Of a stretch of DNA of 32,000 nt, positions 1,403 through 31,273 are shown in pieces (within the stretch, counting starts at the first letter, position 1; each line of letters begins with the position of its first letter). The stretch is from Candidatus Brocadia sp. (GTDB lineage: Bacteria; Planctomycetota; Brocadiia; Brocadiales; Brocadiaceae), in NCBI GenBank assembly GCA_021650915.1, contig CP091279.1, positions 3,480,001 to 3,512,000 on the forward strand. The letters are read 5' to 3'. A model generated the notes under the pieces. The model was not told where the DNA came from and did no database searches. It saw only the letters and a program-made list of their open reading frames with translations. Position numbers and translations under genes: made by a program.

Positions 1403-2410
1403 TCACAAGAGCTTTTCGGCAATCTGGATGGCATTCAGGGCAGCCCCTTTCCTGACGTTATCGCTTACAACCCACAGATTGATTCCATGATCAAGGGATT
1501 CGTCTTCACGGATACGGCCCACGAAAACTTCGTCCCTGCCTGTAGCCATCGTGGCCAGGGGATACAGTTGATTGGCAGGATCATCCGCTACCTGAACGCC
1601 CGGCGCCGTCGAAAGCAGCTTCTTTACCGCCGCCGCGCTAATCTTTTTCTCCGTTTCTATATTGATGGACTCGCTATGACTGCGAATAACGGGCACCCGC
1701 ACGGTAGTTGCGGTCACCCTGACGCTATTGTCACCCAGGATCTTTTTGGTTTCGCTTACCATCTTCATCTCTTCCGAGGTATATCCATTGGGAAGAAACG
1801 CATTGTTCTGGGGAATCTGTGGCAACACGTTAAAGGCGATCTGGTGGGGAAACAGGTTTCTTCTAAAACCTTCCTGGCCGGATAAAATGCTAGCCGTTTC
1901 CTTTTGAAGTTCATCAATGGCTTTCAGCCCCGCACCCGATACGGCCTGATACGTTGACACGACAATCCTCTTTATCCTGGCGGCATCGTGGATTGGTTTC
2001 AAGGCAACCACCATCTGAATGGTGGAACAATTCGGATTCGCAATCACGCCGTGATGTTTTGCAATGTCCTGCGGGTTCACCTCGGGCACCACCAGGGGGA
2101 CGTCGTCGTCCATCCGAAAGGCGCTGGAATTATCCACGCAAACGGCCCCGCTCGCAATAGCGTAAGGCACATATTCCCTGCTTATGCTTGCCCCGGCGCT
2201 GAAAAGGGCAATCTTTATACCCTCGAACGAATGCTTCGTCAGTTCCTGCACGGTATAGTCGCGTCCGCAAAACCGCATCTTTTTCCCGGCCGAACGTTTT
2301 GAGGCTAATAACCGCAGCTCTTTCACCGGGAATTTCCTGCTTTCCAAAATCCGGAGAAATTCCTCACCCACGGCTCCTGTTGCGCCAACTACTGCTACAT
2401 TTACTGCCAT
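1403..2410 (-). CDS. asd: aspartate-semialdehyde dehydrogenase
   Basis: Motifs seen: VAVVGATGAVG NAD(P) fold, the NPNCSTI active-site Cys motif, and QAVSGAG. The likely start is MAVNV at 2410, preceded by AGGAG/GGAGGAG. The track ORF extends to 2437. Confidence 0.93.
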   Translation of the reverse strand: MAVNVAVVGATGAVGEEFLRILESRKFPVKELRLLASKRSAGKKMRFCGRDYTVQELTKHSFEGIKIALFSAGASISREYVPYAIASGAVCVDNSSAFRMDDDVPLVVPEVNPQDIAKHHGVIANPNCSTIQMVVALKPIHDAARIKRIVVSTYQAVSGAGLKAIDELQKETASILSGQEGFRRNLFPHQIAFNVLPQIPQNNAFLPNGYTSEEMKMVSETKKILGDNSVRVTATTVRVPVIRSHSESINIETEKKISAAAVKKLLSTAPGVQVADDPANQLYPLATMATGRDEVFVGRIREDESLDHGINLWVVSDNVRKGAALNAIQIAEKLL

Positions 2411-4751: not shown

Positions 4752-6527
4752 ATGAGACCTATACACCGTAGTTTCATTACCGGCACGATGCAAAAATTGA
4801 CACCTCGCTTTTGCCGTCTTGCCCTCACCGGAATTTTTTTCCCCGGAGTCATCGTGTTGAGCTGGTTCGCCTGCCGTTCATACCCGCTATATTCAGAAGA
4901 CAACATTTTCAGCCAGGCCACGGGGTCCGTGCCCTATTATTCCCAAACCGAGGCCTCCGGCACGCAATCCGCTGCTGATGCGCCAAGAGCCATAACCGGT
5001 CCGGCTTCGCGGATCACCCAGAATTCAACAACGCTTCACGGGGTGGTAAATGCACATGGATTATCAACGACCGTATGGTTTCAATACCGGATCGTCAACG
5101 GGCCATCAAAGATCACTGCTGCAACGCAAACCGTAATTGGAACGGACGACACGGGAATAACTATCAGCATCATTGAACTCTTCCCCGGCTCAACGTATTA
5201 TTATCGTCTTGTGGCAAAGAACGACGCGGGCACGTCGTATGGACGAGAAATGTCATTTACCACCCTTGATATCGATTCATCAATCGCAATGGAAACAACC
5301 CAGCCCGTGGGCGGCATTGTTATTAATGAAGGGGCATCCAGCACCAATTCTTTAACGGTTGCCGCAACCCTTTCTGCCACCGATAATACCGGAATCACGG
5401 GTTACTATCTCTCTGCCAGCTCTCTCCCGCCGTCCCAACACTCTGCCGGATGGATATCGGTACCGGCGACCACGGATTACCGGGATAAGGTTCCCTTTGT
5501 TGTGGATAACGGGAATGGCGCCACTACCGTTTTTGTCTGGTATAAGGACGCTTCCGGAAACATATCGGATGCCGCCAGTGACGCTATCGTTGTGGATACC
5601 ACACCCCCGATCATCACGATTCAGGATCCAACGTCTGACCAGATCTATGCGACTACCAGCGAAACCATAAGCATTGGCGGAGATGCTTCGGACGACCTTA
5701 ACGAAATAACCAGCATTGTATGGACGAATAACCGGGAAACGTACAACACAGACCGAAATACGCTCAACTGGATTATTCCCCACGTTCTCCTGGCGAAAGG
5801 GGATAATGTCATAACCGTGAAGGCTGCCGATCGCGTGGGCAATACGGGAATAGCAAAGATAACGATAACGTATACCACCGGAGACAATGCGCCGCTGGCA
5901 ACAACAGGACTTGCGGCGAGCATAACCACGGACCTGGCGACGTTGGGCGGAACAGTGCATGCCATGGGATTACCGACAACGGCGTGGTTCCAGTACGGCA
6001 CAAGCAGCAGACAGTACAGCAGTATGTCACCCATTCAGGATGTCGAAGAACTGGAGCTTGATACGCCGGTAGGCAACCGGTTAAGCGGATTACAGGCGGG
6101 AACGACCTATTATTACCGGTTGGTCGCTCAAAATAGCGCAGGGTCTGCCTCCGGAGGTGAAATGACCTTTACGACATTACCCCTGAAAGGCAGGATTTAC
6201 GGAAAAGTCGTCCGCTTTCAGAAGGGCGATCCAATCGAATCGGTAAAGGTGCGGCTCAAGGGAACGAAGGCGAGGAAAAAGGTCTTTCAGGTGGTATTTT
6301 CCGATACGCACGGACTTTTCACCATTGATAACTTAGATGCGGATACGTATGGTATAACCGCGACAAAAACCGATTTTACGACGGCTACCCAGATCGTAGA
6401 GCTGAAAGAAGGCGAGGAGAAGAAGATCGAGATTTCCTTGCAAAGCAGAGAGAAAGACAAAGAAGAGCCAAAGGATACTAAAATTGAGCAACCGAAGGCA
6501 AACGAAACACCACAGAATGTGAAATAA
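4752..6527 (+). CDS. secreted or membrane-anchored multi-domain surface protein (two FN3-like repeats, Ig-like middle domain, CarboxypepD_reg-like domain, Lys/Glu-rich tail)
   Basis: A hydrophobic N-terminal segment is present (LALTGIFFPGVIVLSWFA). Two repeats end in GSTYYYRLVAKNDAGTSYGREMSFTTL and GTTYYYRLVAQNSAGSASGGEMTFTTL. The C-terminal region reads GRIYGKVV...TDTHGLFTIDNLDADTYGITATK. An AGGAAGGA RBS favours the ATG at 4752. The track ORF begins at 4698. Confidence 0.7.
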   Translation: MRPIHRSFITGTMQKLTPRFCRLALTGIFFPGVIVLSWFACRSYPLYSEDNIFSQATGSVPYYSQTEASGTQSAADAPRAITGPASRITQNSTTLHGVVNAHGLSTTVWFQYRIVNGPSKITAATQTVIGTDDTGITISIIELFPGSTYYYRLVAKNDAGTSYGREMSFTTLDIDSSIAMETTQPVGGIVINEGASSTNSLTVAATLSATDNTGITGYYLSASSLPPSQHSAGWISVPATTDYRDKVPFVVDNGNGATTVFVWYKDASGNISDAASDAIVVDTTPPIITIQDPTSDQIYATTSETISIGGDASDDLNEITSIVWTNNRETYNTDRNTLNWIIPHVLLAKGDNVITVKAADRVGNTGIAKITITYTTGDNAPLATTGLAASITTDLATLGGTVHAMGLPTTAWFQYGTSSRQYSSMSPIQDVEELELDTPVGNRLSGLQAGTTYYYRLVAQNSAGSASGGEMTFTTLPLKGRIYGKVVRFQKGDPIESVKVRLKGTKARKKVFQVVFSDTHGLFTIDNLDADTYGITATKTDFTTATQIVELKEGEEKKIEISLQSREKDKEEPKDTKIEQPKANETPQNVK

Positions 6528-6579
6528 GAAGGGCACACCCTTTTGACCTGTTTGTTTCAATGGCGGCAAGCCGTCGCTG

Positions 6580-6800
6580 CATTTATAATATTACGGTGTA
6601 AAAACTTCTTTTTTTGTAAGTTTTTTCACAAACCCCTTTCAGGCGGTACCGTTTTTTATGAGTGAAAGGTTGCTTCGCTTCGCTCGCAATGACAACGTGC
6701 AGTGTACCGCAAAGCGCAGGTCGCTGTCATTGCGAGGCCTTTTCCGAAGCAATCTCCCCACCTTCATAAAGGAAATTTGGTTGCGGCTGTGCTGCGCTAT
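6580..6800. repeat. intact copy of a ~220-bp dispersed repeat with an internal 12-bp stem
   Basis: It is near-identical to 25072-25176 plus 28752-28880. It contains CTCGCAATGACA...TGTCATTGCGAG. Boundaries are approximate. Confidence 0.7.
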
Positions 6801-6831
6801 GCCTTTTTCAGACAGAAGAATTTCATCCCTT

Positions 6832-6860
6832 CCTGTTTCCCGCAATTTGCGGGAAACAGG
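6832..6860. terminator. perfect 12-bp hairpin downstream of the DinB-like gene (no U-tract)
   Basis: CCTGTTTCCCGC-aattt-GCGGGAAACAGG lies 23 nt past the stop of the minus-strand gene. No T-run follows on either strand, so terminator function is uncertain. Confidence 0.35.
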
Positions 6861-6882
6861 GGGAATAAAAGTTGCTGAAGAC

Positions 6883-7386
6883 CTAATCTGAGCGCTTCTT
6901 TTGCCACTCAGCGAATCGCTTCTTCATCTGGCTGATATGCCCGGGTATATGCTGCTCATACACTTCCAACCAGTTATCCAGGGTAGCGGTTTCATTCTCC
7001 ATTGAGCCGACTGAATCTGACCAGACAGACTCAGGCAATGCCTTGATAAGTGCGTACGATGACAGGCGAAGTCTCCTGAATAATTCCAAAGCCTCTTCCG
7101 TATTTTGATCCCGGTAATGAAGTGCGGCAGACCATTTGTCCTGATCGTATGCGGCAATGGACTTGCCAGGTTCAGCAATTAATTTCCTGCACTTGACGTA
7201 AGCGTTTGCCTCGCTATCGGCAATATGGATGATAATTTCGTGGATGCTCCAGCGGTCAGGTGAAGGTTTGAATGACCACATCGTTTTGGGAAACTGTTTT
7301 AATGCCTCTGTAAGTTGAAGGTGCCCTTTGCCGTAAGATTCGATCTTTTGTATCCGTTCTTCTTGCGTCATGATAATCATCCTCAC
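6883..7386 (-). CDS. DinB-family (DinB_2-like) metal-dependent protein
   Basis: This 167-aa protein has conserved His positions in a four-helix-bundle pattern (HEIIIHIADSE ... EQHIPGHISQM). The start may be MTQEER at 7371, which has a GAGGA upstream. Confidence 0.7.
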   Translation of the reverse strand: MRMIIMTQEERIQKIESYGKGHLQLTEALKQFPKTMWSFKPSPDRWSIHEIIIHIADSEANAYVKCRKLIAEPGKSIAAYDQDKWSAALHYRDQNTEEALELFRRLRLSSYALIKALPESVWSDSVGSMENETATLDNWLEVYEQHIPGHISQMKKRFAEWQKKRSD

Positions 7387-7450
7387 ATATCGTTTTCGTA
7401 ATAAGAAAATAGCCTATTGCTATTTTCTCCAAAAAGTCTATTATAACCAT

Positions 7451-7477
7451 AAAAAAAGCCCCTCGTCTCCGAGAGGC
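7451..7477 (-). terminator. intrinsic terminator
   Basis: The minus strand forms an 8-bp stem GCCTCTCG/CGAGGGGC (one G.U pair) with a GAGA tetraloop, followed by seven T. Confidence 0.7.
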
Positions 7478-7560
7478 TCAAAGGGCTACCCATAGGATAG
7501 TTTCCTACGAAGTTTTCTTTATTGTAGAAAGCAAGGTAGGCATTTGTGTGGTACAACGAC
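7451..7560 (-). ncRNA. tracrRNA-like small RNA (anti-repeat/repeat-like 37-mer + hairpin + terminator)
   Basis: The minus strand reads GTTGTACCACACAAATGCCTACCTTGCTTTCTACAAT (7557-7521). It is followed by AAAGAAAACTTCGTAGGAAA, the hairpin CTATCC-TAT-GGGTAG, and GCCTCTCG-GAGA-CGAGGGGC-TTTTTTT. The unit is bracketed by its own promoter and terminator, divergent from cas9. Confidence 0.5.
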
Positions 7561-7563
7561 ATA

Positions 7564-7593
7564 ATTATTATCTAATTTCCTCGAAAAAGTCAA
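7564..7593 (-). promoter_or_regulatory. sigma70-like promoter for the tracrRNA-like RNA
   Basis: On the minus strand: TTGACT (7593-7588), an 18-nt spacer, then AATAAT (7569-7564). The G at 7557 lies 7 nt downstream and is the first base of the GTTGTA segment. Confidence 0.45.
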
Positions 7594-7612
7594 CAGAAAT
7601 ACGGGAGGAAAA

Positions 7613-9358
7613 ATGGAAAAATATATTTTGGGGTTGGATGTGGGAACCAACTCAATCGGTTCTGCAATTGTCAGATGTGATGGCAATAAACAACCAGTCG
7701 GACTTATTGCCCTGCACAATAGAATTTTTCAAGAGATGGTGGAAGCGGATACGCGTGTGCCGAAAAACAAAAAGCGCAGAGAGAAACGAGGGGCAAGAAA
7801 ATTAGTGCGCCGGTACAAAATGCGAAGGACAAAACTTGTCCAACTCCTGAGTGAAAACAAAATGCTGCCGGACAGCATGCAGGATATGAAAAATTGGGAA
7901 GGTGTTTTAAATGGTATTGGAGACCCGTTCTTACTTCGGGCTAAAGGTGCAAATGAACCGCTTTCTCCGTATGAATTCGGGCGAGCGCTGATGCATCTTT
8001 TAAGGCGCAGAGGCTACAGAAGCAACCGTGGGGCAAAATACATAGAACTGATCAAACACCCAAAAGTCGTTGAATTCTCACAAGCCGAGTTGCAAGACAA
8101 TGATGAAATTGAAGGGGAAGACAAAGCAAAGGCTGATGATCGAAGGAAAGTATTAAGGGGAATATCCCGATTGTATGAAGCAATGAAAGCAAACAACTGT
8201 ATAACTCTTGGGCAATTTATATACAAAACGAGCAGTGAACGTAACCATGAGCCTCGCCGAATTACCAAGTTAACTCTTAATGATACTACTCTGTATGCAA
8301 ACCGTAAACTTTATGAAGATGAGTTCAATTTTCTTTGGGATAAGCAGAACCAATTTCTTTCCTTGAGTGACGGAATTAAGGCTTCAATACACGATGCCAT
8401 TTTCAGTCAACGTCCTATGAAAATCCAGAAAAATCTTGTAGGAAAATGCTCGCTTGAGATTCGCAAGCCCCGTGCAGCAAAGGTAACGCTTGAAGCCCAG
8501 GAGTTCAGGATGTTGCAGGAAATAAATGATCTGAAGATTAAATTGCCTTACACCCCGTTTTCCCCTCTAACTCCTGAGCAAAGAGCCACACTTTTAAATG
8601 CAATTGATAATATTAAGAATTTAAATGAAAAAGGACAACTCCCCTGGGCAGACGTCAAGAAAGTCTTAGACTTGGATAAAAAAGCAAAATTCAACTTACA
8701 AGAGACATCGAAAAACGGACTTTCCGGCAACCGTACAAACCTAGTGTGCAGACATATTAATTACAAATTATATATTGTGGACAATTTTAACTATATCGCG
8801 CCGTAAAACAGCATTTATATGTTTCGTTATTAATATGTCTCTACACTAGCCTTATTCAAAACGATACCTGAACATTGGAAAAATTTCAGTCTGCAACAAA
8901 AACAGGCTTTGATAACCGACCTGTTCACCATCCACAATAAAAAGGCATTATTCAGTCGCCTTATCAACGAACACAACCATGCAAACAATATATGGAGATT
9001 CAGTAGTAAAGAAGCTTATGATCTTGCCACGCTTGAATTAGAGCCGGGGTATGCCAAACACTGTATGAAAGTTATCAATAAGCTTTTGCCTTATATGCGC
9101 GATGGAATGAATTATCACGATGCAAAGGAAAAATACGAGAACGAATACATGAAGAAACACCCAGTTCAAACAAATCAAAATACAACGCTTCCCTTACCTC
9201 CCAATGTGGCAAACCCGATTGTTCAGAAGGCTTTATACGAAACACGCCGGGTGGTAAACGCTATTTTAAAAGCTTACGGTATGCCAGAGATAATCCGTAT
9301 TGAATTGGCAAGAGACCTGAAAACCTCTAAAGAACATCGCAAAAAATTTAGTAGCGTT
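7613..9358 (+). pseudogene. cas9: cas9 (type II CRISPR effector), interrupted by a MITE and truncated after RuvC-II
   Basis: Motifs seen: MEKYILGLDVGTNSIGSAIV (RuvC-I), RREKRGARKLVRRYKMRRTKL (bridge helix), IFSQRPMK, LVGKCSLE and GNRTN. The same frame resumes at 8850 (ALFKTIPEHWKNFSLQQKQALITDLF...). It continues to NPIVQKALYETRRVVNAILKAYGMPEIIRIELARDL (RuvC-II). A GGAGG lies 4 nt before the ATG. No HNH motif occurs anywhere in the window. Confidence 0.85.
8741..8849. mobile_element. MITE inserted in cas9
   Basis: TIRs are CTAGTGTGCAGACATATTAAT and CTAGTGTAGAGACATATTAAT (19/21 matches). CTAG occurs at both ends, 105 bp apart. The element has no coding capacity. It carries the in-frame TAA (8804-8806) that ends the first cas9 ORF. 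Confidence 0.7.
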
Positions 9359-10740
9359 GTCAAGTGGAGACCTGAGAAAAGTCCTCCAATGTATAGTTGT
9401 CACGCATCAAAGCCGTTGTAGTAATAGGCAAGCCGAATTTTGGTAACGTTCAGCGCCCCGGCAACACTCCATTTGCTCACATTCACCCGCAGGTTAACCG
9501 TACGCATGACGCGCTCTACTTTACTTGTCGTTCTGCCATTGAGCCTCTTTTCTATCGCCGTAAACATATCAGGCCTGGCATTCTCAAGATAAGACGCGGT
9601 ATGAGCATATCCCTTCGACAAACAATACTGAATCACCGCACCCAATCGTTTCCTCTTGGACTCTATCATTTTCTCGATGGTCTTCTGGCAATCAACCAAT
9701 GGCCGTATCGCACAGACCTCCATAAGCTCCGACATCACCTCCAGCCATTCTTTCCCCTTGCTCTTGAGCCCATCCTGCCACAATACATACTTTGCCTGAT
9801 ACGGAATATGCCACAAACATCTCTGTACAAGCACCTTGACCTTCCCTTTCAAACTATCCAAAATAGAGGTGTCGCCATCGGTTATCAAAAGAAACTGGGA
9901 AAACTTCCTGAACACCTTAACACTCTTACCAAACAGCTTATCCCAACTGCCGTTGTAATTCCCTATGTCAAGCCCTGCCACTCTCACCCCTCCACCTCTC
10001 TTATATTGCACAAAGACCTTGAGCTCCTTGCCTCGTTTTGCTATCCCCTTAATCCCTACCCCTGTCCCGTCTGCTTCTCCCAGGGGAAGTCCCTTCTCGT
10101 CGAGTTGAAAATCTATCTCTGCTGCCGTCTTTTGTACCGATTTCCATATCGTCATCTTGTCTACTGTCCAGCCAAACATCGACACGATCTTCTTCGCTAC
10201 CCGGTAGGTCGTTAACGATCCTACCAGCCCAAGCTTCCGATACGTCTCCGGTGGTATTCGCTTCATCCGCTCCATCCCCAGAAGCTTTCGCGTTATATAC
10301 ATCTTATGACCGCACCTCTTGCACTGCACCTGCAACTGCTCTAATCTCAACCACTGAAAGACCGTCAGTATCTTCGTCTCTTTTCCATGCCTCGTCTTCC
10401 AGATAAACTCCTTGTCATTCCCACATTCGTCGCAGCAAAATGGCTTCCGTGATTGCGCCATCGCACTCTCACCAAAACCAACCACGATCTTCTGAATAAA
10501 ATCCCTTAATATCTCCGGCAGTATCTTGCAAAATGCCCTGAGAATCGACTCCAAGCTGCCGTCCTTTAATTCAACCCGAATTTGACAACCAAATTCTATT
10601 GTGATACCATCTGTGCATGGGGTTGCTCCCATATAGCCCTCCTTCTCTTTATGGTTTAGTTTCTTTTATCAAAACTATTTTTTACCATATTTGAAGGGCT
10701 TTTTCTTTAACCAAGTCTCTCTTTTTCTACTCCACCAGAC
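9359..10740 (-). mobile_element. IS element truncating cas9 (boundaries tentative)
   Basis: It contains the 410-aa transposase gene. Weak terminal similarity exists: GTCAAGTGGAG (9359-9369) against GTCTGGTGGAG (reverse complement of 10730-10740). I found no flanking direct repeat. Confidence 0.5.
9400..10632 (-). CDS. DDE transposase with N-terminal zinc-ribbon (ISLre2/ISKra4/ISH6-like; family uncertain)
   Basis: Motifs seen: CCDECGN...CKRCGH Cys pairs, ITDGDTSILDSL...QRCLWHI, and EADGTG. The 410-aa ORF is intact. Confidence 0.75.
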   Translation of the reverse strand: MGATPCTDGITIEFGCQIRVELKDGSLESILRAFCKILPEILRDFIQKIVVGFGESAMAQSRKPFCCDECGNDKEFIWKTRHGKETKILTVFQWLRLEQLQVQCKRCGHKMYITRKLLGMERMKRIPPETYRKLGLVGSLTTYRVAKKIVSMFGWTVDKMTIWKSVQKTAAEIDFQLDEKGLPLGEADGTGVGIKGIAKRGKELKVFVQYKRGGGVRVAGLDIGNYNGSWDKLFGKSVKVFRKFSQFLLITDGDTSILDSLKGKVKVLVQRCLWHIPYQAKYVLWQDGLKSKGKEWLEVMSELMEVCAIRPLVDCQKTIEKMIESKRKRLGAVIQYCLSKGYAHTASYLENARPDMFTAIEKRLNGRTTSKVERVMRTVNLRVNVSKWSVAGALNVTKIRLAYYYNGFDA

Positions 10741-10839
10741 CAGGAATTTTAAATATTTCAGGCTTGCAGATTGAACCGGATATTAGAACCTGACTATGGA
10801 TTTTAAATCAGTCCCGGCCATGAAAAAAGCCGAATGTTT

Positions 10840-10863
10840 GGTTCAATCGAAAACGATTGAACC
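10840..10863 (-). repeat. REP-like hairpin, copy 1
   Basis: GGTTCAATCG-aaaa-CGATTGAACC forms a perfect 10-bp stem about 95 nt downstream of the GH15 stop. A related copy lies at 21034-21057. Confidence 0.5.
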
Positions 10864-10959
10864 AGCGCGGTAAACATCTAAAATATTTATGGTTTCTGGG
10901 TTCAGCAAAAACGGTGTGATGACGTGGTGGTATGAACCGTTACAAGATTTGGCACCCCC

Positions 10960-12984
10960 CTAAGCATTCCAAGGTTTCTGAACATGCCGGTGCACGTAAG
11001 ACTCTGAATTACCGCACTCAGGACATATGAGGAGTCTTTCTCGTTTTTTCATATATTTTAAGAGAGTCGTAACGAAGACGGCATGACTCCAGGTAAGGGG
11101 TGATACCGACAACGGTTCACCGGTGTAGGGATTGATCTGTTCTGCAAGGACACCGGAGGGCAATGCCCTGCTCACCACCCATTCCAGGACGGATAACGCA
11201 TTTCTGAGTTCTGCAAGGGTTTTTGCCCGCATAATATCGTATTCGGCCAGCCACAAGGTGCAAACAAACCAGGGATTACCTGGCACCTGTCCGGCTTCGT
11301 TGCTGACCCTATGATAGGGATCGTTGGTATATCGGGCGATCCCACCCACATACGTGTTTACCGACAATTTTTCCTTTACCGCATTCATTGTTGAGGCAGT
11401 CATTGATTCTTCTGCGTCAAAGACATCAAAGGTAACAAGCCCGGCAAGACTTGCATCCACCGTCATGTCGAGTTCGTAACCGGTTGCCGTCCTTGTCCCC
11501 ATCCTTGCAAATCGTTTTTCTTCTTTATGATAAAAATAGGTCGTCAGGGCACTCTTCATCGTATCTGCGATTTCATGATATTTACTGCCGTATTCATGCT
11601 CTCCAAAGGCATTGGCAAAATTACCCGCTGCACGCAACCCCGCAATAACCGCTGATACCGTAAAGGTATGCACCCCGTACCGTTCTTCCCATAAATCATA
11701 CGAATCGAGCGGCAACCCGGTTTCTTCATCCCTGAATTTAATCATAAACTCAGCCGCGCTTATGATTAAATTCCGGTAGAGCGATTTCACGAATTCAATG
11801 TCCCTGAATTCATCATAATGGTTCCATAACGCCCAAATGACCAAAGCAATTCCGTCTTCCTGAATGGGCAGGCTCTTCTTGTCGTTCTTCAGCCACGGAT
11901 GCCACGAACTGGCGAAAGACCGGTCGGGATTATATTTGTGGAGCAGATAGCCGTCATTGGAAATAACATCTGCGCAGAACTGGAAGAAACGTTTTGACGT
12001 GTCCAGATACCCTGACTTAACCAGGGCTTGCGCCACCAGGGCCCCGTCCCTCGGCCACATATAAGAATAGTGATCCCGCCCCATTTGGACGATATCGGAA
12101 TCATTCGCGGCAATAATGGCGCCTTCGTTGTCAATCTGCGTCCGGATAATCAGCAGACTTCTCTTGAAAAAGGAGATAAGCCTTTGTGGGATGTCAGAGA
12201 AGTTAAACGTCTCTTTATTTACCCACAATTTCCAGTAATTTTCCGTCCGTCGTATCAATTCTTCCGGCATTTTTTCCCAGATAACCTTATTGAGTTTTAC
12301 GACTTCGCTGTATTTCATTCCTACGGCAATCCAATAATGGGCTATATTTTCACTGTATGCTTTCACCTGAAGATTGATACCCAGGGTTGAATCTACCGAA
12401 CCCTGGGCAATAGGATTGCCACTTAAGGCGCCATCTTCGGCATCCTTCCACGTCCCCTCTGCACCCCGTGTTTCTTTGATCCCCGTGGCGAAATGGTCTA
12501 CCCCGCATTTTGCCGAATCACAACAATTAATCAGAAAATACCGATGGGACTTGTAGTGAATAACGGACATGGTATCCGGGTCGTAATACGCAGTATCCCC
12601 AACTTCATTTTCGTAGATGTGAAAATCATGGTTGAAAAATAATCGTACTTCCCGGTCCCTTCCCTCCAGATTCCGGACGACAATTTCCTTCACAAAGATG
12701 TTCAAATGAAAATCCACGGTATCGTACATCTGAAGCTCGATCTTCAACCGATCGTTTCTTGCTCTCACATCTGTTACCAGGGTATCTTCTTTATATCGCA
12801 AGGTCTTTTGCCATTCTCCTCCAAACCAGCTGAATTGCCCATCAACCCATATACCCATCCGGCAGGGATGACCGATAGTGTGATTTTCCTTACCGACATA
12901 GGGATAAAAAATGTCTCTGATCTGGTACTCCCGGTCAAAGGTAACCAGCATTGAACCATTTCCTACCGGTAGGTCTCTGGGCAT
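10960..12984 (-). CDS. glycoside hydrolase family 15 (glucoamylase/glucodextranase-like)
   Basis: This 674-aa protein carries YMWPRDGA and EQINPYTGEPLSVSPLTWSHA motifs. It has an N-terminal beta-sandwich region followed by an (alpha/alpha)6 region. Confidence 0.88.
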   Translation of the reverse strand: MPRDLPVGNGSMLVTFDREYQIRDIFYPYVGKENHTIGHPCRMGIWVDGQFSWFGGEWQKTLRYKEDTLVTDVRARNDRLKIELQMYDTVDFHLNIFVKEIVVRNLEGRDREVRLFFNHDFHIYENEVGDTAYYDPDTMSVIHYKSHRYFLINCCDSAKCGVDHFATGIKETRGAEGTWKDAEDGALSGNPIAQGSVDSTLGINLQVKAYSENIAHYWIAVGMKYSEVVKLNKVIWEKMPEELIRRTENYWKLWVNKETFNFSDIPQRLISFFKRSLLIIRTQIDNEGAIIAANDSDIVQMGRDHYSYMWPRDGALVAQALVKSGYLDTSKRFFQFCADVISNDGYLLHKYNPDRSFASSWHPWLKNDKKSLPIQEDGIALVIWALWNHYDEFRDIEFVKSLYRNLIISAAEFMIKFRDEETGLPLDSYDLWEERYGVHTFTVSAVIAGLRAAGNFANAFGEHEYGSKYHEIADTMKSALTTYFYHKEEKRFARMGTRTATGYELDMTVDASLAGLVTFDVFDAEESMTASTMNAVKEKLSVNTYVGGIARYTNDPYHRVSNEAGQVPGNPWFVCTLWLAEYDIMRAKTLAELRNALSVLEWVVSRALPSGVLAEQINPYTGEPLSVSPLTWSHAVFVTTLLKYMKKRERLLICPECGNSESYVHRHVQKPWNA

Positions 12985-15507: not shown

Positions 15508-15641
15508 GGTAACAATTTAGTTTTTTGAAAAATCCCAATAAAGGCGATGTTTACCATACCGTGCAGGGGCAGGTTTGAAACCTGCCCCTACAAGACAATA
15601 GTATTTATCGAGAGAATTTTTCAAAAAGCTAAATTGTTACC
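15508..15641. mobile_element. 134-bp MITE-like element with 26-bp terminal inverted repeats
   Basis: GGTAACAATTTAGTTTTTTGAAAAAT (15508-15533) pairs with ATTTTTCAAAAAGCTAAATTGTTACC (15616-15641), 25/26 complementary. An internal hairpin reads GGGGCAGGT-ttgaa-ACCTGCCCC. No ORF is present. Confidence 0.6.
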
Positions 15642-25071: not shown

Positions 25072-25176
25072 TGCATTATAGTATTACTGTATAAAAACTT
25101 CTTTTTTTGTAAGTTTTTTCACAAACCCCGTTCAAGAGGTACCGTTTTTTATGAGTGAAAGATTGCTTCGCTTCAC
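25072..25176. repeat. left half of the second copy of the ~220-bp repeat (split by an IS)
   Basis: It aligns with 6585-6690 and ends ...GATTGCTTCGCTTCAC at the IS junction. Confidence 0.75.
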
Positions 25177-28751: not shown

Positions 28752-28880
28752 CGCTTCACTCGCAATGACAACGTGCAGTGTACCATCAAAGTGCATGGTC
28801 GCTGTCATTGCGAGGGGCCTTTTCCGAAGCAATCTCCCCGCTTTCATAAAGGAAATTTGGTTGCGGCTGTGCTGCGCTAG
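28752..28880. repeat. right half of the second copy of the ~220-bp repeat
   Basis: It aligns with 6683-6800 and includes the CTCGCAATGACA...TGTCATTGCGAG stem. Confidence 0.75.
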
Positions 28881-29072: not shown

Positions 29073-30925
29073 ACGGATGTTCACCTCAAGGCAAAAAACA
29101 AAAAGGCTGCGAAAGCCTTAATTTTACTGGCTTATTTGTTGCCTGGTAAGTTTTTTTCTCGTGACTACCCGTAGGTTCCGGCTTGGCAATGCCTCCGGCA
29201 GCTTTACCTGCAATGCCTCTAACAATTCACGTGATTGTTGCCGTGGACGTGGTATCTTCTGGCAATGCGCCTTTTGACCCTTCACCTTCACTTCCACGGA
29301 ACAAATGGTAGTCAATTGTTTGAGTCCTTCCTCTACCGTCAGATCAAAACTCTTCCACGCATCACGTAACCTTCGGATTATCAGGTACGCAAGCATTACC
29401 ACAAACACATGCCCTTTTGTACTCTCTTCTTTCCTCACGTATACAGGACGAACCTCAAGATTCACCGTCTTGCACCCCCGAAACACCTTCTCCACCTCTG
29501 ACAAGTCCTTGTACCGGTCGTGCACCAGATCGGCATCCGCATCGCCCTCCTTCAGATCGGTCTTGATTACATAACATCCATCAAGATACGATTCTTCCTT
29601 GAATGCTTCTTCATTGTTCTCAATCTTCAGCGCCCCGGCCTCGTCTTTTATCTGCACCCACCCCTCAAGCTTCAGCTTCCCGAGCTTCTCCTTCGCTGCC
29701 CCCAGCGCCTTCAATACCGATGCCTTCGGATGTTCTCTCAAATAACCATTCCTCTTCTCGACATATCTCTCCATACTCTGTAATTTTGACATGCGAGTCT
29801 TCGCCATCTCTTCTGCCCTTATCGGATTGCGTCTCAGAATATACCGAACCCCCTCACTCTTTATCTCGCAGAGCTTTTCTTCAAACAACCCTAACTGCAG
29901 AATCCCTTGTTTTATCAACGACTCGATCTGCGGCTTGGTTATCGCCGTTATGTAATGAAACCCCTCCGGTAAACATTCGATTTGCATCGTCTTGATCATC
30001 CCCCGATCACCTACCATGGTCACCCCGGTGCACCCAAACCGTTCTGCCGTCTTCTTTACCTGAGACTCAAAGGTCTTTGGGTCCTGAGTATTGCCCCGAA
30101 AAACCTCCGTGGACACCGGCTCCCCAAATTCATCACACAGCATACCAATCACGATCTGCTTCTTCCCCTTCTTGCCGTCACGATTATACCCGTACTCACC
30201 AAAACGATTCTGCTCCCCTCCAGATAACTGCTCGTCACGTCATACAGAAACAGCTTCGGCTTCTTGCCTGCCCGTCTTGCCTCAAACAACGTTCGCTCTA
30301 TCCTCGCCTGTTGCTCCGATAACCACGATAAATTATCGTAGAGATCATTCTCGTCGAACCCCCGCTTCATACCCAGCACATCACCCGCTGCATGCACATG
30401 CGCCAGCCGCACCGCCGAGAGTCTTGACCCCTGATTTATCACCCGCGCCATTACCTGCCACAGCGCCAGTCTCCCTTGAAAATCCTTCCCCAACGCCTCC
30501 TCTATCCCTAATTCCTTTGCCACCTGGTACACACTCCAGATCGCCCCCACGGACATCCCCTCCTGGAGTTCCACCGATCCTGACAATGCCCCCAATGCAG
30601 TGAGATCCTCTTTATGGCTGAGGGCAAGCTTTATCGCTTCTATCTCCCGCGATGTGCAGTTCGACAGATTTGCAATGGTACGCTTCCTGACCTTTCCGCC
30701 TTCCCGATACGATTCCCGCAAAAGAATGGAGCGATAGATTTTTTTGCCGGATTTTGATTTGTTTTCCACAATATGCATGTCTACTATAATATACTATATT
30801 ATTCAACATTTCAAGCACATTATTGAATAATAACAATATATTAGTGACTACATAATTGCAGACAAAACCACACTAACTACCAATATATTAAATACTTACG
30901 TGGTTTGCTTGGGGTGAACATCCGT
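29073..30925 (-). mobile_element. IS1634-family element inserted in the GNAT gene
   Basis: A 13-bp perfect TIR ACGGATGTTCACC lies at 29073-29085 and inverted at 30913-30925, extending imperfectly. It is flanked by TTTT at 29069-29072 and 30926-30929. Confidence 0.8.
29124..30778 (-). pseudogene. IS1634-family transposase with a frameshift
   Basis: The N-terminal ORF is 30149-30778 (MHIVENKSKSGKKIYRSILLRESYREGGKVRKRTIANLS...LYDVTSSYLEG). The C-terminal ORF is 29124-30152, whose frame reads back as GEQNRFGEYGYNRDGKKGKKQIVIGMLCDE. The break is at the C4 run 30215-30218. Confidence 0.85.
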
Positions 30926-31273
30926 TTTTAACTCCTTTGATATGTCAACAAACTTTGTCAGGAGCTTCTTTGAAACCCCCATCCCCTGGAATTCTGGCAA
31001 GACCGCCAAAGAAAAGATAACGATATTTTTCCCGTCTCTCACATGACCAACCATGTCCTTGAATGCCTCATCCGTTATATCCTCTTTGTTTGTCGATCCG
31101 CTGTTAATCATCCCAACGATTTGCCCGTGCGATTCAGCAACGAGAAATCCCTCAGGAAACATCTGTATGCGCTTCTGAATCTTTTCCCTCGTTGCCGCAT
31201 CAGACGTATAACAAACAGACTCGATGACATAACAGGCATCTGAATCGTGTTCCGTAACGCGTCGAATTCTCAT
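30926..31273 (-). pseudogene. GNAT acetyltransferase, 5' fragment
   Basis: MRIRRVTEHDSDACYVIESV...IFSLAVLPEFQGMGVSKKLLTKFVDISKELK includes the acetyl-CoA motif Q/RxxGxG/A. The reading frame then runs into the IS TIR (TDVHPKQTT*). Confidence 0.75.

Follow-up and report, generated by a model that had tools for sequence, protein, structure and literature searches.

A tracrRNA gene beside a disrupted cas9 in Candidatus Brocadia, probably the recent orphan of a type II-C CRISPR-Cas9 locus

Why should one RNA gene of a CRISPR-Cas9 locus (short palindromic repeats, clustered and regularly interspaced, and the associated nuclease Cas9) look intact when the cas9 gene beside it is destroyed and no array of repeats is in sight? 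This question is raised by positions 7451-7593, minus strand, of a 32,000-nucleotide (nt) stretch of DNA from the anammox bacterium Candidatus Brocadia, which was analysed as a whole and is referred to here as the window. An earlier, sequence-only reading of this stretch had recognised a self-contained unit resembling a tracrRNA (trans-activating CRISPR RNA), divergent from the broken cas9, and had left three options for it, namely, a relic, the only clue to the repeat of an array elsewhere in that genome, or an RNA retained for another role. On the basis of sequence, structure, position and pairing, we identify this segment as the tracrRNA gene belonging to a Candidatus Brocadia CRISPR-Cas9 locus of type II-C. 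With regard to its present state, the relic is the best supported of the three options, and we consider it likely that the unit is a recent orphan.

The elements of the unit stand where the sequence-only reading had placed them. First, the predicted sigma-70-like promoter (7564-7593, minus strand) consists of a -35 box TTGACT (7593-7588), an 18-nt spacer and a -10 box AATAAT (7569-7564); it matches the consensus at 10 of 12 positions and is the top site of its kind within 6500-11200 in our promoter scan. Second, after a gap of six nt from the -10 box, and with transcription predicted to start at or near G7557, comes the 37-mer GTTGTACCACACAAATGCCTACCTTGCTTTCTACAAT (7557-7521, minus strand), which forms the anti-repeat. 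Third, AAAGAAAACTTCGTAGGAAA leads from the end of the 37-mer to a hairpin, H3, with the sequence CUAUCC-UAU-GGGUAG (7500-7486), and CCCTTTGA separates this hairpin from a Rho-independent terminator, H4 (7477-7451). The DNA of the latter is a stem GCCTCTCG-GAGA-CGAGGGGC (7477-7458) followed by T7 (7457-7451), which as RNA reads GCCUCUCG-GAGA-CGAGGGGC plus U7; the terminator scan called it at 7479-7456. Promoter and intrinsic terminator, both present in the consensus scans, bracket an RNA of 107 nt (7451-7557), as had been estimated, and the 116-nt segment 7445-7560 has a more stable fold than its shuffles (z = -2.65).

The 37-mer is single-copy in the window with up to three mismatches allowed, with 0 of 100 shuffles matching, and it is also unique in the contig collections described below; its membership in a dispersed repeat family unrelated to CRISPR was accordingly rejected. 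Its mutually complementary ends, GTTGTA and TACAAT, had been pointed out as characteristic of type II-C repeats and anti-repeats. They do reflect the GTTGT...ACAAT ends of the repeat family, and they form no hairpin. The unit lies on the strand opposite to cas9, 56 nt upstream of its ATG. A cas9 promoter-like site, TAGGCA-17 nt-CATAAT (7537-7565, plus strand), falls within the anti-repeat and start region of the tracrRNA, and judging from these boxes the two promoters may perhaps overlap back-to-back.

An independent test was provided by a covariance model, R1, which was built from 13 tracrRNAs, none of them from Brocadia, with four hand-set helices, and searched with filters off. The 13-sequence subset and its hand-set structure replaced a MAFFT alignment of 21 sequences on which RNAalifold predicted zero pairs, because the terminators were misaligned. 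In the 13-sequence alignment 88.8% of the cells are paired, against 34-53% with slid partners, and nine pairs show compensatory change. R1 recovers 7451-7557 on the minus strand in full length (58.4 bits, E 1.2e-11, model positions 1-109 of 109), the second-best score in the window being 8.7 bits. Over 87 sources (1.33 Mb) the model returns 30 matches, one per locus, and all 30 are located as in the window, namely, just upstream of cas9 and on the opposite strand. The window unit ranks 22nd among them, above six array-validated tracrRNAs that were absent from training. No Rfam 15 family was matched in the whole window at gathering thresholds, and a permissive scan (E up to 10) of 7350-7650 gave only noise; the tracrRNA scaffold of this Cas9 clade is a family outside every Rfam 15 model.

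The alignment of the 30 members, which was fitted to R1 and is hence biased toward the structure of the model, shows compensatory change in 17 of 19 pairs and has 91% of its cells paired, against 41-60% with slid partners. In the family alignment, H3 (columns 105-108 and 155-158 of alignment A4) has compensatory changes at all four of its pairs and is 92% paired, and the terminator helix H4 is 94% paired. Helix H1, which is 93.9% paired in the 30 members, joins anti-repeat nt 18-22, CCUAC in the window (7540-7536), with a downstream GUAGG (7508-7504), so that it spans 7504-7540 of the minus strand. The window copy retains H1, H3 and H4 intact. H2 is shortened to a weak helix of 3 bp (GAA/UUC, inside 7520-7509), enclosed by H1, in which cmsearch flagged two non-standard pairs. 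Two related loci, L008 and L009, are without H2, yet they have large arrays.

Helix H1 is of interest on its own account. Across the 30 tracrRNAs, anti-repeat nt 18-22 (CCURC; A4 columns 18-22) covary with the downstream GYAGG (columns 92-96), as A-U in 13 and as G-C in 14, and distant members have alternative complementary versions of the helix (GGCCCG/CGGGCC in L045). We know of no previous description of this anti-repeat/GYAGG helix, which we had not expected. This pairing competes with the pairing to the CRISPR RNA (crRNA), and it hints at a self-closed state of the free tracrRNA.

How the locus may once have been arranged can be seen in its relatives. When one genome per species was scanned, 80 related loci were retrieved. 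The nearest homologues, of about 40% identity, are found on contigs with cas9-cas1-cas2 and then an array, even where assembly errors split cas9. Each of these contigs has a small unit just 5' of cas9, on the opposite strand. These units open with the exact first 22-23 nt of their own repeat, and this start tracks the repeat of the locus: between L008 and L009, three positions have changed in the repeat and in the start of the unit alike. Over the next ~14 nt (e.g. UUGUUUUUUACAAC and CUUGCUUUUCACAAU), pairing with the 14 nt that are left of the repeat is imperfect, and the units close with hairpins and then a terminator. When repeat matches outside arrays were sought by blastn-short, the best one was upstream of cas9 and on the opposite strand in 33 of the 37 array-bearing loci, at 29-417 nt (four loci at 308-417 nt, most at 29-170 nt); it typically corresponded to the opening 16-27 nt of the repeat used at that locus, and it varied in step with this repeat. 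The anti-repeat has the sequence of the repeat in cas sense, and the unit runs antisense to cas9; it follows that transcription of the crRNAs must be opposed to that of the cas operon. Such transcription has been shown experimentally for Neisseria meningitidis and Campylobacter jejuni, and 'upstream of cas9' is one of four typical positions of anti-repeats (PMC3737331).

Two observations on these relatives may be added. The cas9 of L010 (also L011 and L012) has an in-frame TAA at 2421-2423, within the HNH motif (DDS*MNK; the relatives have Tyr in place of the stop), and an NCBI assembly and two Logan runs share this stop; the locus, which still has its tracrRNA, cas1, cas2 and array, may be another recently inactivated system. 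At L014 10001-12572 (also L015 and L016), a Cas9 N-terminal open reading frame (ORF) of 581 amino acids (aa) runs into an array that begins at 11681, and the HNH half, cas1 and cas2 are missing, so that this may be a type II locus truncated by a different route.

The sequence-only reading had also derived a repeat from the anti-repeat. By analogy with the relatives, the 3' 22 nt of the repeat should exactly complement 7557-7536, and a 20-mer from this part was used as a query against three public contig collections. First, the species-representative genome contigs gave no match, the Brocadia locus itself included; as these genomes lack the locus, this collection is silent on an array in the source genome. 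Second, the metagenome contigs gave four matches, one of which is the Brocadia contig itself. Third, the viral contigs (IMG/VR) gave one match. None of the matches in genome, metagenome or viral contigs lies within an array. The exact matches in two metagenome contigs, L019 and L020, were rejected as real repeats, as they fall in unrelated, gene-poor sequence of 40% GC and have no repeat-like continuation; we attribute them to chance, ~1-2 such matches being expected at this database size. One solitary full repeat, in contrast to these, stands at 1507-1542 (plus strand) of WBZR01003010.1 (L018), a contig that shares its metagenome assembly with one from Brocadia, and the same repeat is found at 2907-2942 of the viral contig IMGVR_UViG_3300020577_003307 (L022), which is 99.95% identical to L018. 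The view of the unit as a clue to an array thus led only to a solitary repeat in a phage, and to no array in the three collections.

In crRNA sense, this solitary repeat reads GTTGTGGCTTGCGGGTAGGCATTTGTGTGGTACAAT. The prediction was right for its 3' 22 nt (GTAGGCATTTGTGTGGTACAA-), which pair perfectly with anti-repeat nt 1-22 (7557-7536), with a G·U at the last position. It was wrong for the 5' 14 nt, which are GTTGTGGCTTGCGG instead of ATTGTAGAAAGCAAG, because that part pairs imperfectly, through wobbles and an internal loop, with the 15 nt at anti-repeat positions 23-37 (7535-7521, CUUGCUUUCUACAAU). These 5' 14 nt fit the pattern of the family (GTTGTGGTTTGCGG in L038, GTTGTGAATTGCGG in L010). 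The duplex of the tracrRNA with the solitary repeat GUUGUGGCUUGCGGGUAGGCAUUUGUGUGGUACAAU was estimated at -51.7 kcal/mol, with 7 bp, an internal loop and 26 bp, which is the topology of the family. For reference, 20 genuine pairs gave -39.6 to -60.9 kcal/mol, and the window tracrRNA with non-cognate repeats gave -12.8 to -36.4 kcal/mol; the cognate repeat in this comparison is the solitary copy of the phage and not one from an array of the Brocadia genome. The role of the 37-mer as anti-repeat, proposed from its shape, is thereby confirmed.

These data also bear on whether the unit might not be a tracrRNA, but the 5' leader or a small RNA of the DinB-like gene downstream (6883-7386). What suggests this is the arrangement, since the unit lies 65 nt upstream of this DinB_2 gene and on the same strand. 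Nevertheless, the unit ends in a terminator with a U7 tract, the same RNA occurs upstream of cas9 in 30 loci of unrelated organisms, its anti-repeat pairs with a repeat of the family, and Rfam has no leader or small-RNA family above noise for it. We consider the leader effectively refuted by the R1 model, the duplex and the 30-locus evidence, and give it a negligible probability.

Having established what the unit is, we turn to the gene next to it. The Cas9 model TIGR01865, of 1070 positions, is matched by two ORFs, 7613-8806 at model positions 1-358 and 8909-9421 at positions 391-533. The first part of the cas9 remnant (7613-8744, plus strand; E 1.5e-64, and also matched by Pfam Cas9_a) encodes RuvC-I, the bridge helix and the start of the recognition (REC) lobe, and the second part (8850-9349, plus strand) extends from the REC lobe to RuvC-II and ends in ...IRIELARDLKTSKEHRKKF. 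Between them lies an insertion of 105 nt (8745-8849) that resembles a miniature inverted-repeat transposable element (MITE), with terminal inverted repeats of 21 nt (CTAGTGTGCAGACATATTAAT / ATTAATATGTCTCTACACTAG) and a CTAG target duplication at both ends (8741-8744 and 8846-8849). We take this duplication to be IS5-like. The MITE supplies the in-frame stop at 8804-8806 that ends the first ORF. A copy 93% identical to it is present elsewhere in a Brocadia genome (L001 16985-17099), with at least two copies in Brocadia genomes. When the MITE is excised in silico, the two cas9 ORFs join into one reading frame, and a tblastn alignment passes over the site without a break.

A second lesion removes the remainder of the gene. 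The closest relative, P0002, is 64% identical over the second part; its homology to the window ends at 9349, and P0002 itself runs 225 residues further, into HNH; the window thus retains Cas9 residues 1 to ~482, interrupted by the MITE. Abutting the truncated cas9 is an ISH6-family-like transposase gene (9400-10632, minus strand), for whose 410-aa ORF Pfam had no match and whose identity came from NCBIfam (NF041731, E 8.7e-57, 192.7 bits, under the 240-bit cut-off). The ISH6-family-like element lies in the 9350-10900 region of the window. For this cas9, six loci were retrieved, and five of them terminate between 9451 and 10172, which is the signature expected of a multi-copy repeat element. 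Identity of L001, a 21-kb locus of a 3.25-Mb Brocadia contig, to the window stops at 9677, inside the transposase gene, after which L001 continues as a copy of window 30819-30926; this suggests a rearrangement or a mis-assembly at a repeat. With the full Cas9, Cas1 and Cas2 of a related locus as queries, neither the C-terminal half of cas9 nor cas1 nor cas2 was found in the window or L001, and no CRISPR array or tandem repeat was found within the 32-kb window. A functional type II-C locus has an intact cas9 with HNH, RuvC-III and the part that interacts with the protospacer adjacent motif (PAM), as well as cas1, cas2 and an array, and this one is not functional.

The state of what remains is informative. 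The cas9 remnant (1.6 kb) has, beyond these insertions, no frameshift or stop, and it retains 47 of 47 invariant columns of an 11-sequence Cas9 alignment. With no other defects in cas9, the inactivation looks recent, and after a recent inactivation an intact tracrRNA is to be expected. The 397-aa product of 7613-8806 is identical to an annotated Candidatus Brocadia sp. protein, found on 11 contigs (the longest of 4.05 Mb), and the same truncated product is encoded in all 10 contigs that we read with this cas9 N-terminal sequence. One of the 11 contigs, from GCA_000987375.1, is 99.99% identical to the window, and the public Brocadia assemblies amount to two haplotypes only, with 13 single-nucleotide polymorphisms (SNPs) in 9.4 kb and zero in the tracrRNA unit.

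Taken together with the family, these data suggest the following history. The ancestral locus would have had the layout of the intact members of the clade, namely, a divergent tracrRNA gene, cas9, cas1, cas2 and then the array. The 5' 37 nt of the tracrRNA would have paired with the repeats of a precursor crRNA (pre-crRNA) transcribed antisense to the cas genes, both RNAs would have been processed together, and the 3' scaffold (H2-H4 and terminator) would have bound Cas9. In Brocadia, the MITE has interrupted cas9 and the ISH6-like element has truncated it after ~480 codons, and the locus has parted with the HNH, RuvC-III and PAM-interacting parts of cas9, with cas1, with cas2 and with the array. 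On the far side of cas9 from both events, the tracrRNA gene has kept its promoter, anti-repeat, scaffold helices and terminator, most likely because there has been too little time for decay, and not because the RNA is needed. With no Cas9 and no crRNA, the tracrRNA has no known job, which makes it an orphan relic; the unit itself is most likely inert.

Several points weigh against this interpretation. First, expression of the tracrRNA is a prediction from consensus scans only. Second, the exclusion of a further cas9, or of an array, at another place in the source genome is not strict, given that the representative genome lacks this locus. Third, the cognate repeat is still present in a phage, and live versions of the system could exist in unsampled strains. 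Fourth, two haplotypes give no power to detect selection, so that the conservation of the unit is neutral on this matter. Fifth, the broken cas9 is common to every assembly found and has persisted through at least that shallow divergence.

The second and third of these points lead to an explanation in which the tracrRNA is in service, acting in trans with an intact Cas9 and an array of GTTGTGGCTTGCGGGTAGGCATTTGTGTGGTACAAT repeats elsewhere in the genome or in co-existing Brocadia strains. A perfect cognate repeat kept by a phage of the same metagenome assembly, and found again in IMG/VR, would best fit an active or recently active host system; a Cas9 fragment that is 64-69% identical and has an HNH domain (P0002) occurs in a JGI metagenome (3300045502); and our searches covered public collections, and the source genome in part. 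Yet the genome, metagenome and viral contig collections contain no array with this repeat, the truncated 397-aa product was found in 10 of 10 contigs read, and a protein search with the N-terminal Cas9 sequence revealed no second close Cas9 in Brocadia. We therefore regard service in trans as unlikely.

The phage that carries the repeat deserves closer description. By PHROGs, the L018 genes are a terminase large subunit, a head-tail connector, a scaffold or protease and a major head protein, and the GC content of the contig, 46.5%, is close to the 46.9% of the window. The repeat sits in the 73-nt gap from the stop of the terminase to the next ATG, and its crRNA sense is that of the coding strand. 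L018 and L022 have a single copy each, with no cas genes nearby, as defines a viral solitary repeat unit. No promoter was predicted directly upstream of the L018 repeat; we also observed that the 3' end of the repeat, TGGTACAAT, resembles an extended -10 box facing the downstream gene. The host of this phage is probably an anammox bacterium, and by analogy with RNA elements of other phages, discussed below, its repeat is a candidate type II RNA decoy that would act through tracrRNA.

Could the RNA, then, have been retained for a role that does not involve Cas9? One candidate role is that of a small RNA which acts on host transcripts by base pairing, and another is that of an antisense RNA to transcripts of the phage repeat with cleavage by RNase III. 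Its promoter, terminator and all helices are intact, and the 33-bp duplex with the phage repeat, at -51.7 kcal/mol, would make an RNase III substrate. No Cas9-independent role is, to our knowledge, known for any orphan tracrRNA, which counts against this explanation, as does the fact that recent inactivation already accounts for the intactness of the unit. Moreover, the comparison of SNPs between the two Brocadia haplotypes gives no sign of selection, and the window contains no further complementary target. A precedent exists in a tracrRNA that is able to act on cellular RNAs without Cas9 (PMC12302355). The third option of the sequence-only reading found no support, and we judge such a role to be quite unlikely.

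It is nonetheless tempting to speculate on a specific version of this role, which we hold to be very unlikely. A tracrRNA that is still made could be a Cas9-independent antisense RNA, forming 33 bp with late transcripts of the phage across its terminase-portal gap and directing their cleavage by the RNase III of the host. If this were true, a decoy that the phage carries against Cas9 would have become its weak point, or else the decoy would still titrate a living RNA.

Returning to the orphan relic, its significance is as follows. A type II-C Cas9 system was once present in the fulgida group of Candidatus Brocadia; we date its loss as recent and identify a MITE and an ISH6-like element as the agents; our literature search found no paper on a Brocadia Cas9. 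What is new is an orphaned tracrRNA from a known class, type II-C, with a scaffold family that matches no Rfam model, and the analysis yields a tracrRNA family of 30 members, with a structure supported by covariation, for a Cas9 clade of uncultivated bacteria. The solitary type II-C repeat provides both a candidate decoy acting via tracrRNA and a link from an uncultivated phage to its host. Interest in the unit alone is modest; the phage-borne cognate repeat and the covarying helix are worth following up.

Other features of the window include dispersed repeats of ~100-130 nt, at 6578-6681 (92% identical to 25072-25174) and at 6676-6799 (93% identical to 28752-28879). The copies at 6578-6681 and 6676-6799 adjoin each other between genes, downstream of the end of the DinB-like gene at 6883, and may be further MITEs. 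A near-perfect palindrome of 29 nt is located at 6832-6860, and an imperfect palindrome of 134 nt (70%) at 15508-15641, between the G6PD gene and the next gene.

When compared with known systems, the phage element comes closest to the RNA anti-CRISPRs (Racrs), that is, viral solitary repeat units, which have been shown to act as such for types I-C, I-E, I-F and V-A; no type II Racr was among those assayed (Camara-Wilpert et al., 2023; PMC10651486). Like the Racrs, the L018 element is a single full-length repeat in an intergenic phage gap, without cas genes or a second repeat, and it matches the CRISPR type of its presumed host. Unlike the validated Racrs, a type II repeat mimic would need to act via tracrRNA; no promoter was predicted directly upstream, and none of the sampled genomes has a live version of the matching host system.

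RNAs of the small CRISPR-associated (scaRNA) type are a further point of comparison. The scaRNA, viral scaRNA, tracr-L and viral single-guide RNA (sgRNA) are likewise repeat- or tracr-like RNAs outside arrays, and they interact with Cas9 and tracrRNA (preprint 10.64898/2026.06.01.729453; Workman 2021). The window unit differs from these RNAs in that it starts at the anti-repeat, without an upstream guide or a part of a repeat. As for the phage element, its 40-nt flanks have no match of at least 8 nt to window 7300-7800, which contains the cas9 promoter region, and an R1 search found no tracr scaffold in the L018 contig. Without a guide against the cas9 promoter and without a tracr scaffold, it is not a viral scaRNA or viral sgRNA in the sense of that preprint, and this identification was ruled out.

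The closest relatives of the window unit are the tracrRNAs of its own clade (L023, a metagenome-assembled genome of Deltaproteobacteria; L010, L013 of NC10; L024 of Elusimicrobia; L026-L044; and others), with which it shares position, strand, length (98-131 nt), order of modules and helices. The N-terminal regions of the Cas9s are 35-45% identical. The Brocadia copy differs from them in that its H2 has only 3 bp, and its locus in that nothing is left beyond Cas9 residue ~480.

Another comparison is with type II-C tracrRNAs such as those of N. meningitidis and C. jejuni. In N. meningitidis, the equivalent of the anti-repeat is ...GCUACAAUAAGG. With both, the window unit has in common a 5' anti-repeat that ends in ...CUACAAU and is followed by AAAG, its own promoter, 3' hairpins and an intrinsic terminator, as well as, in its family, an array transcribed against the direction of the cas operon (Chylinski et al., 2013; PMC3737331). 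In contrast to these systems, the Brocadia locus has no Cas9, crRNA or adaptation genes. Past the end of the anti-repeat there is no detectable sequence relationship to tracrRNAs from N. meningitidis or C. jejuni, so that the window unit belongs to a separate scaffold family, one that adds a covarying helix between anti-repeat nt 18-22 and the downstream GYAGG.

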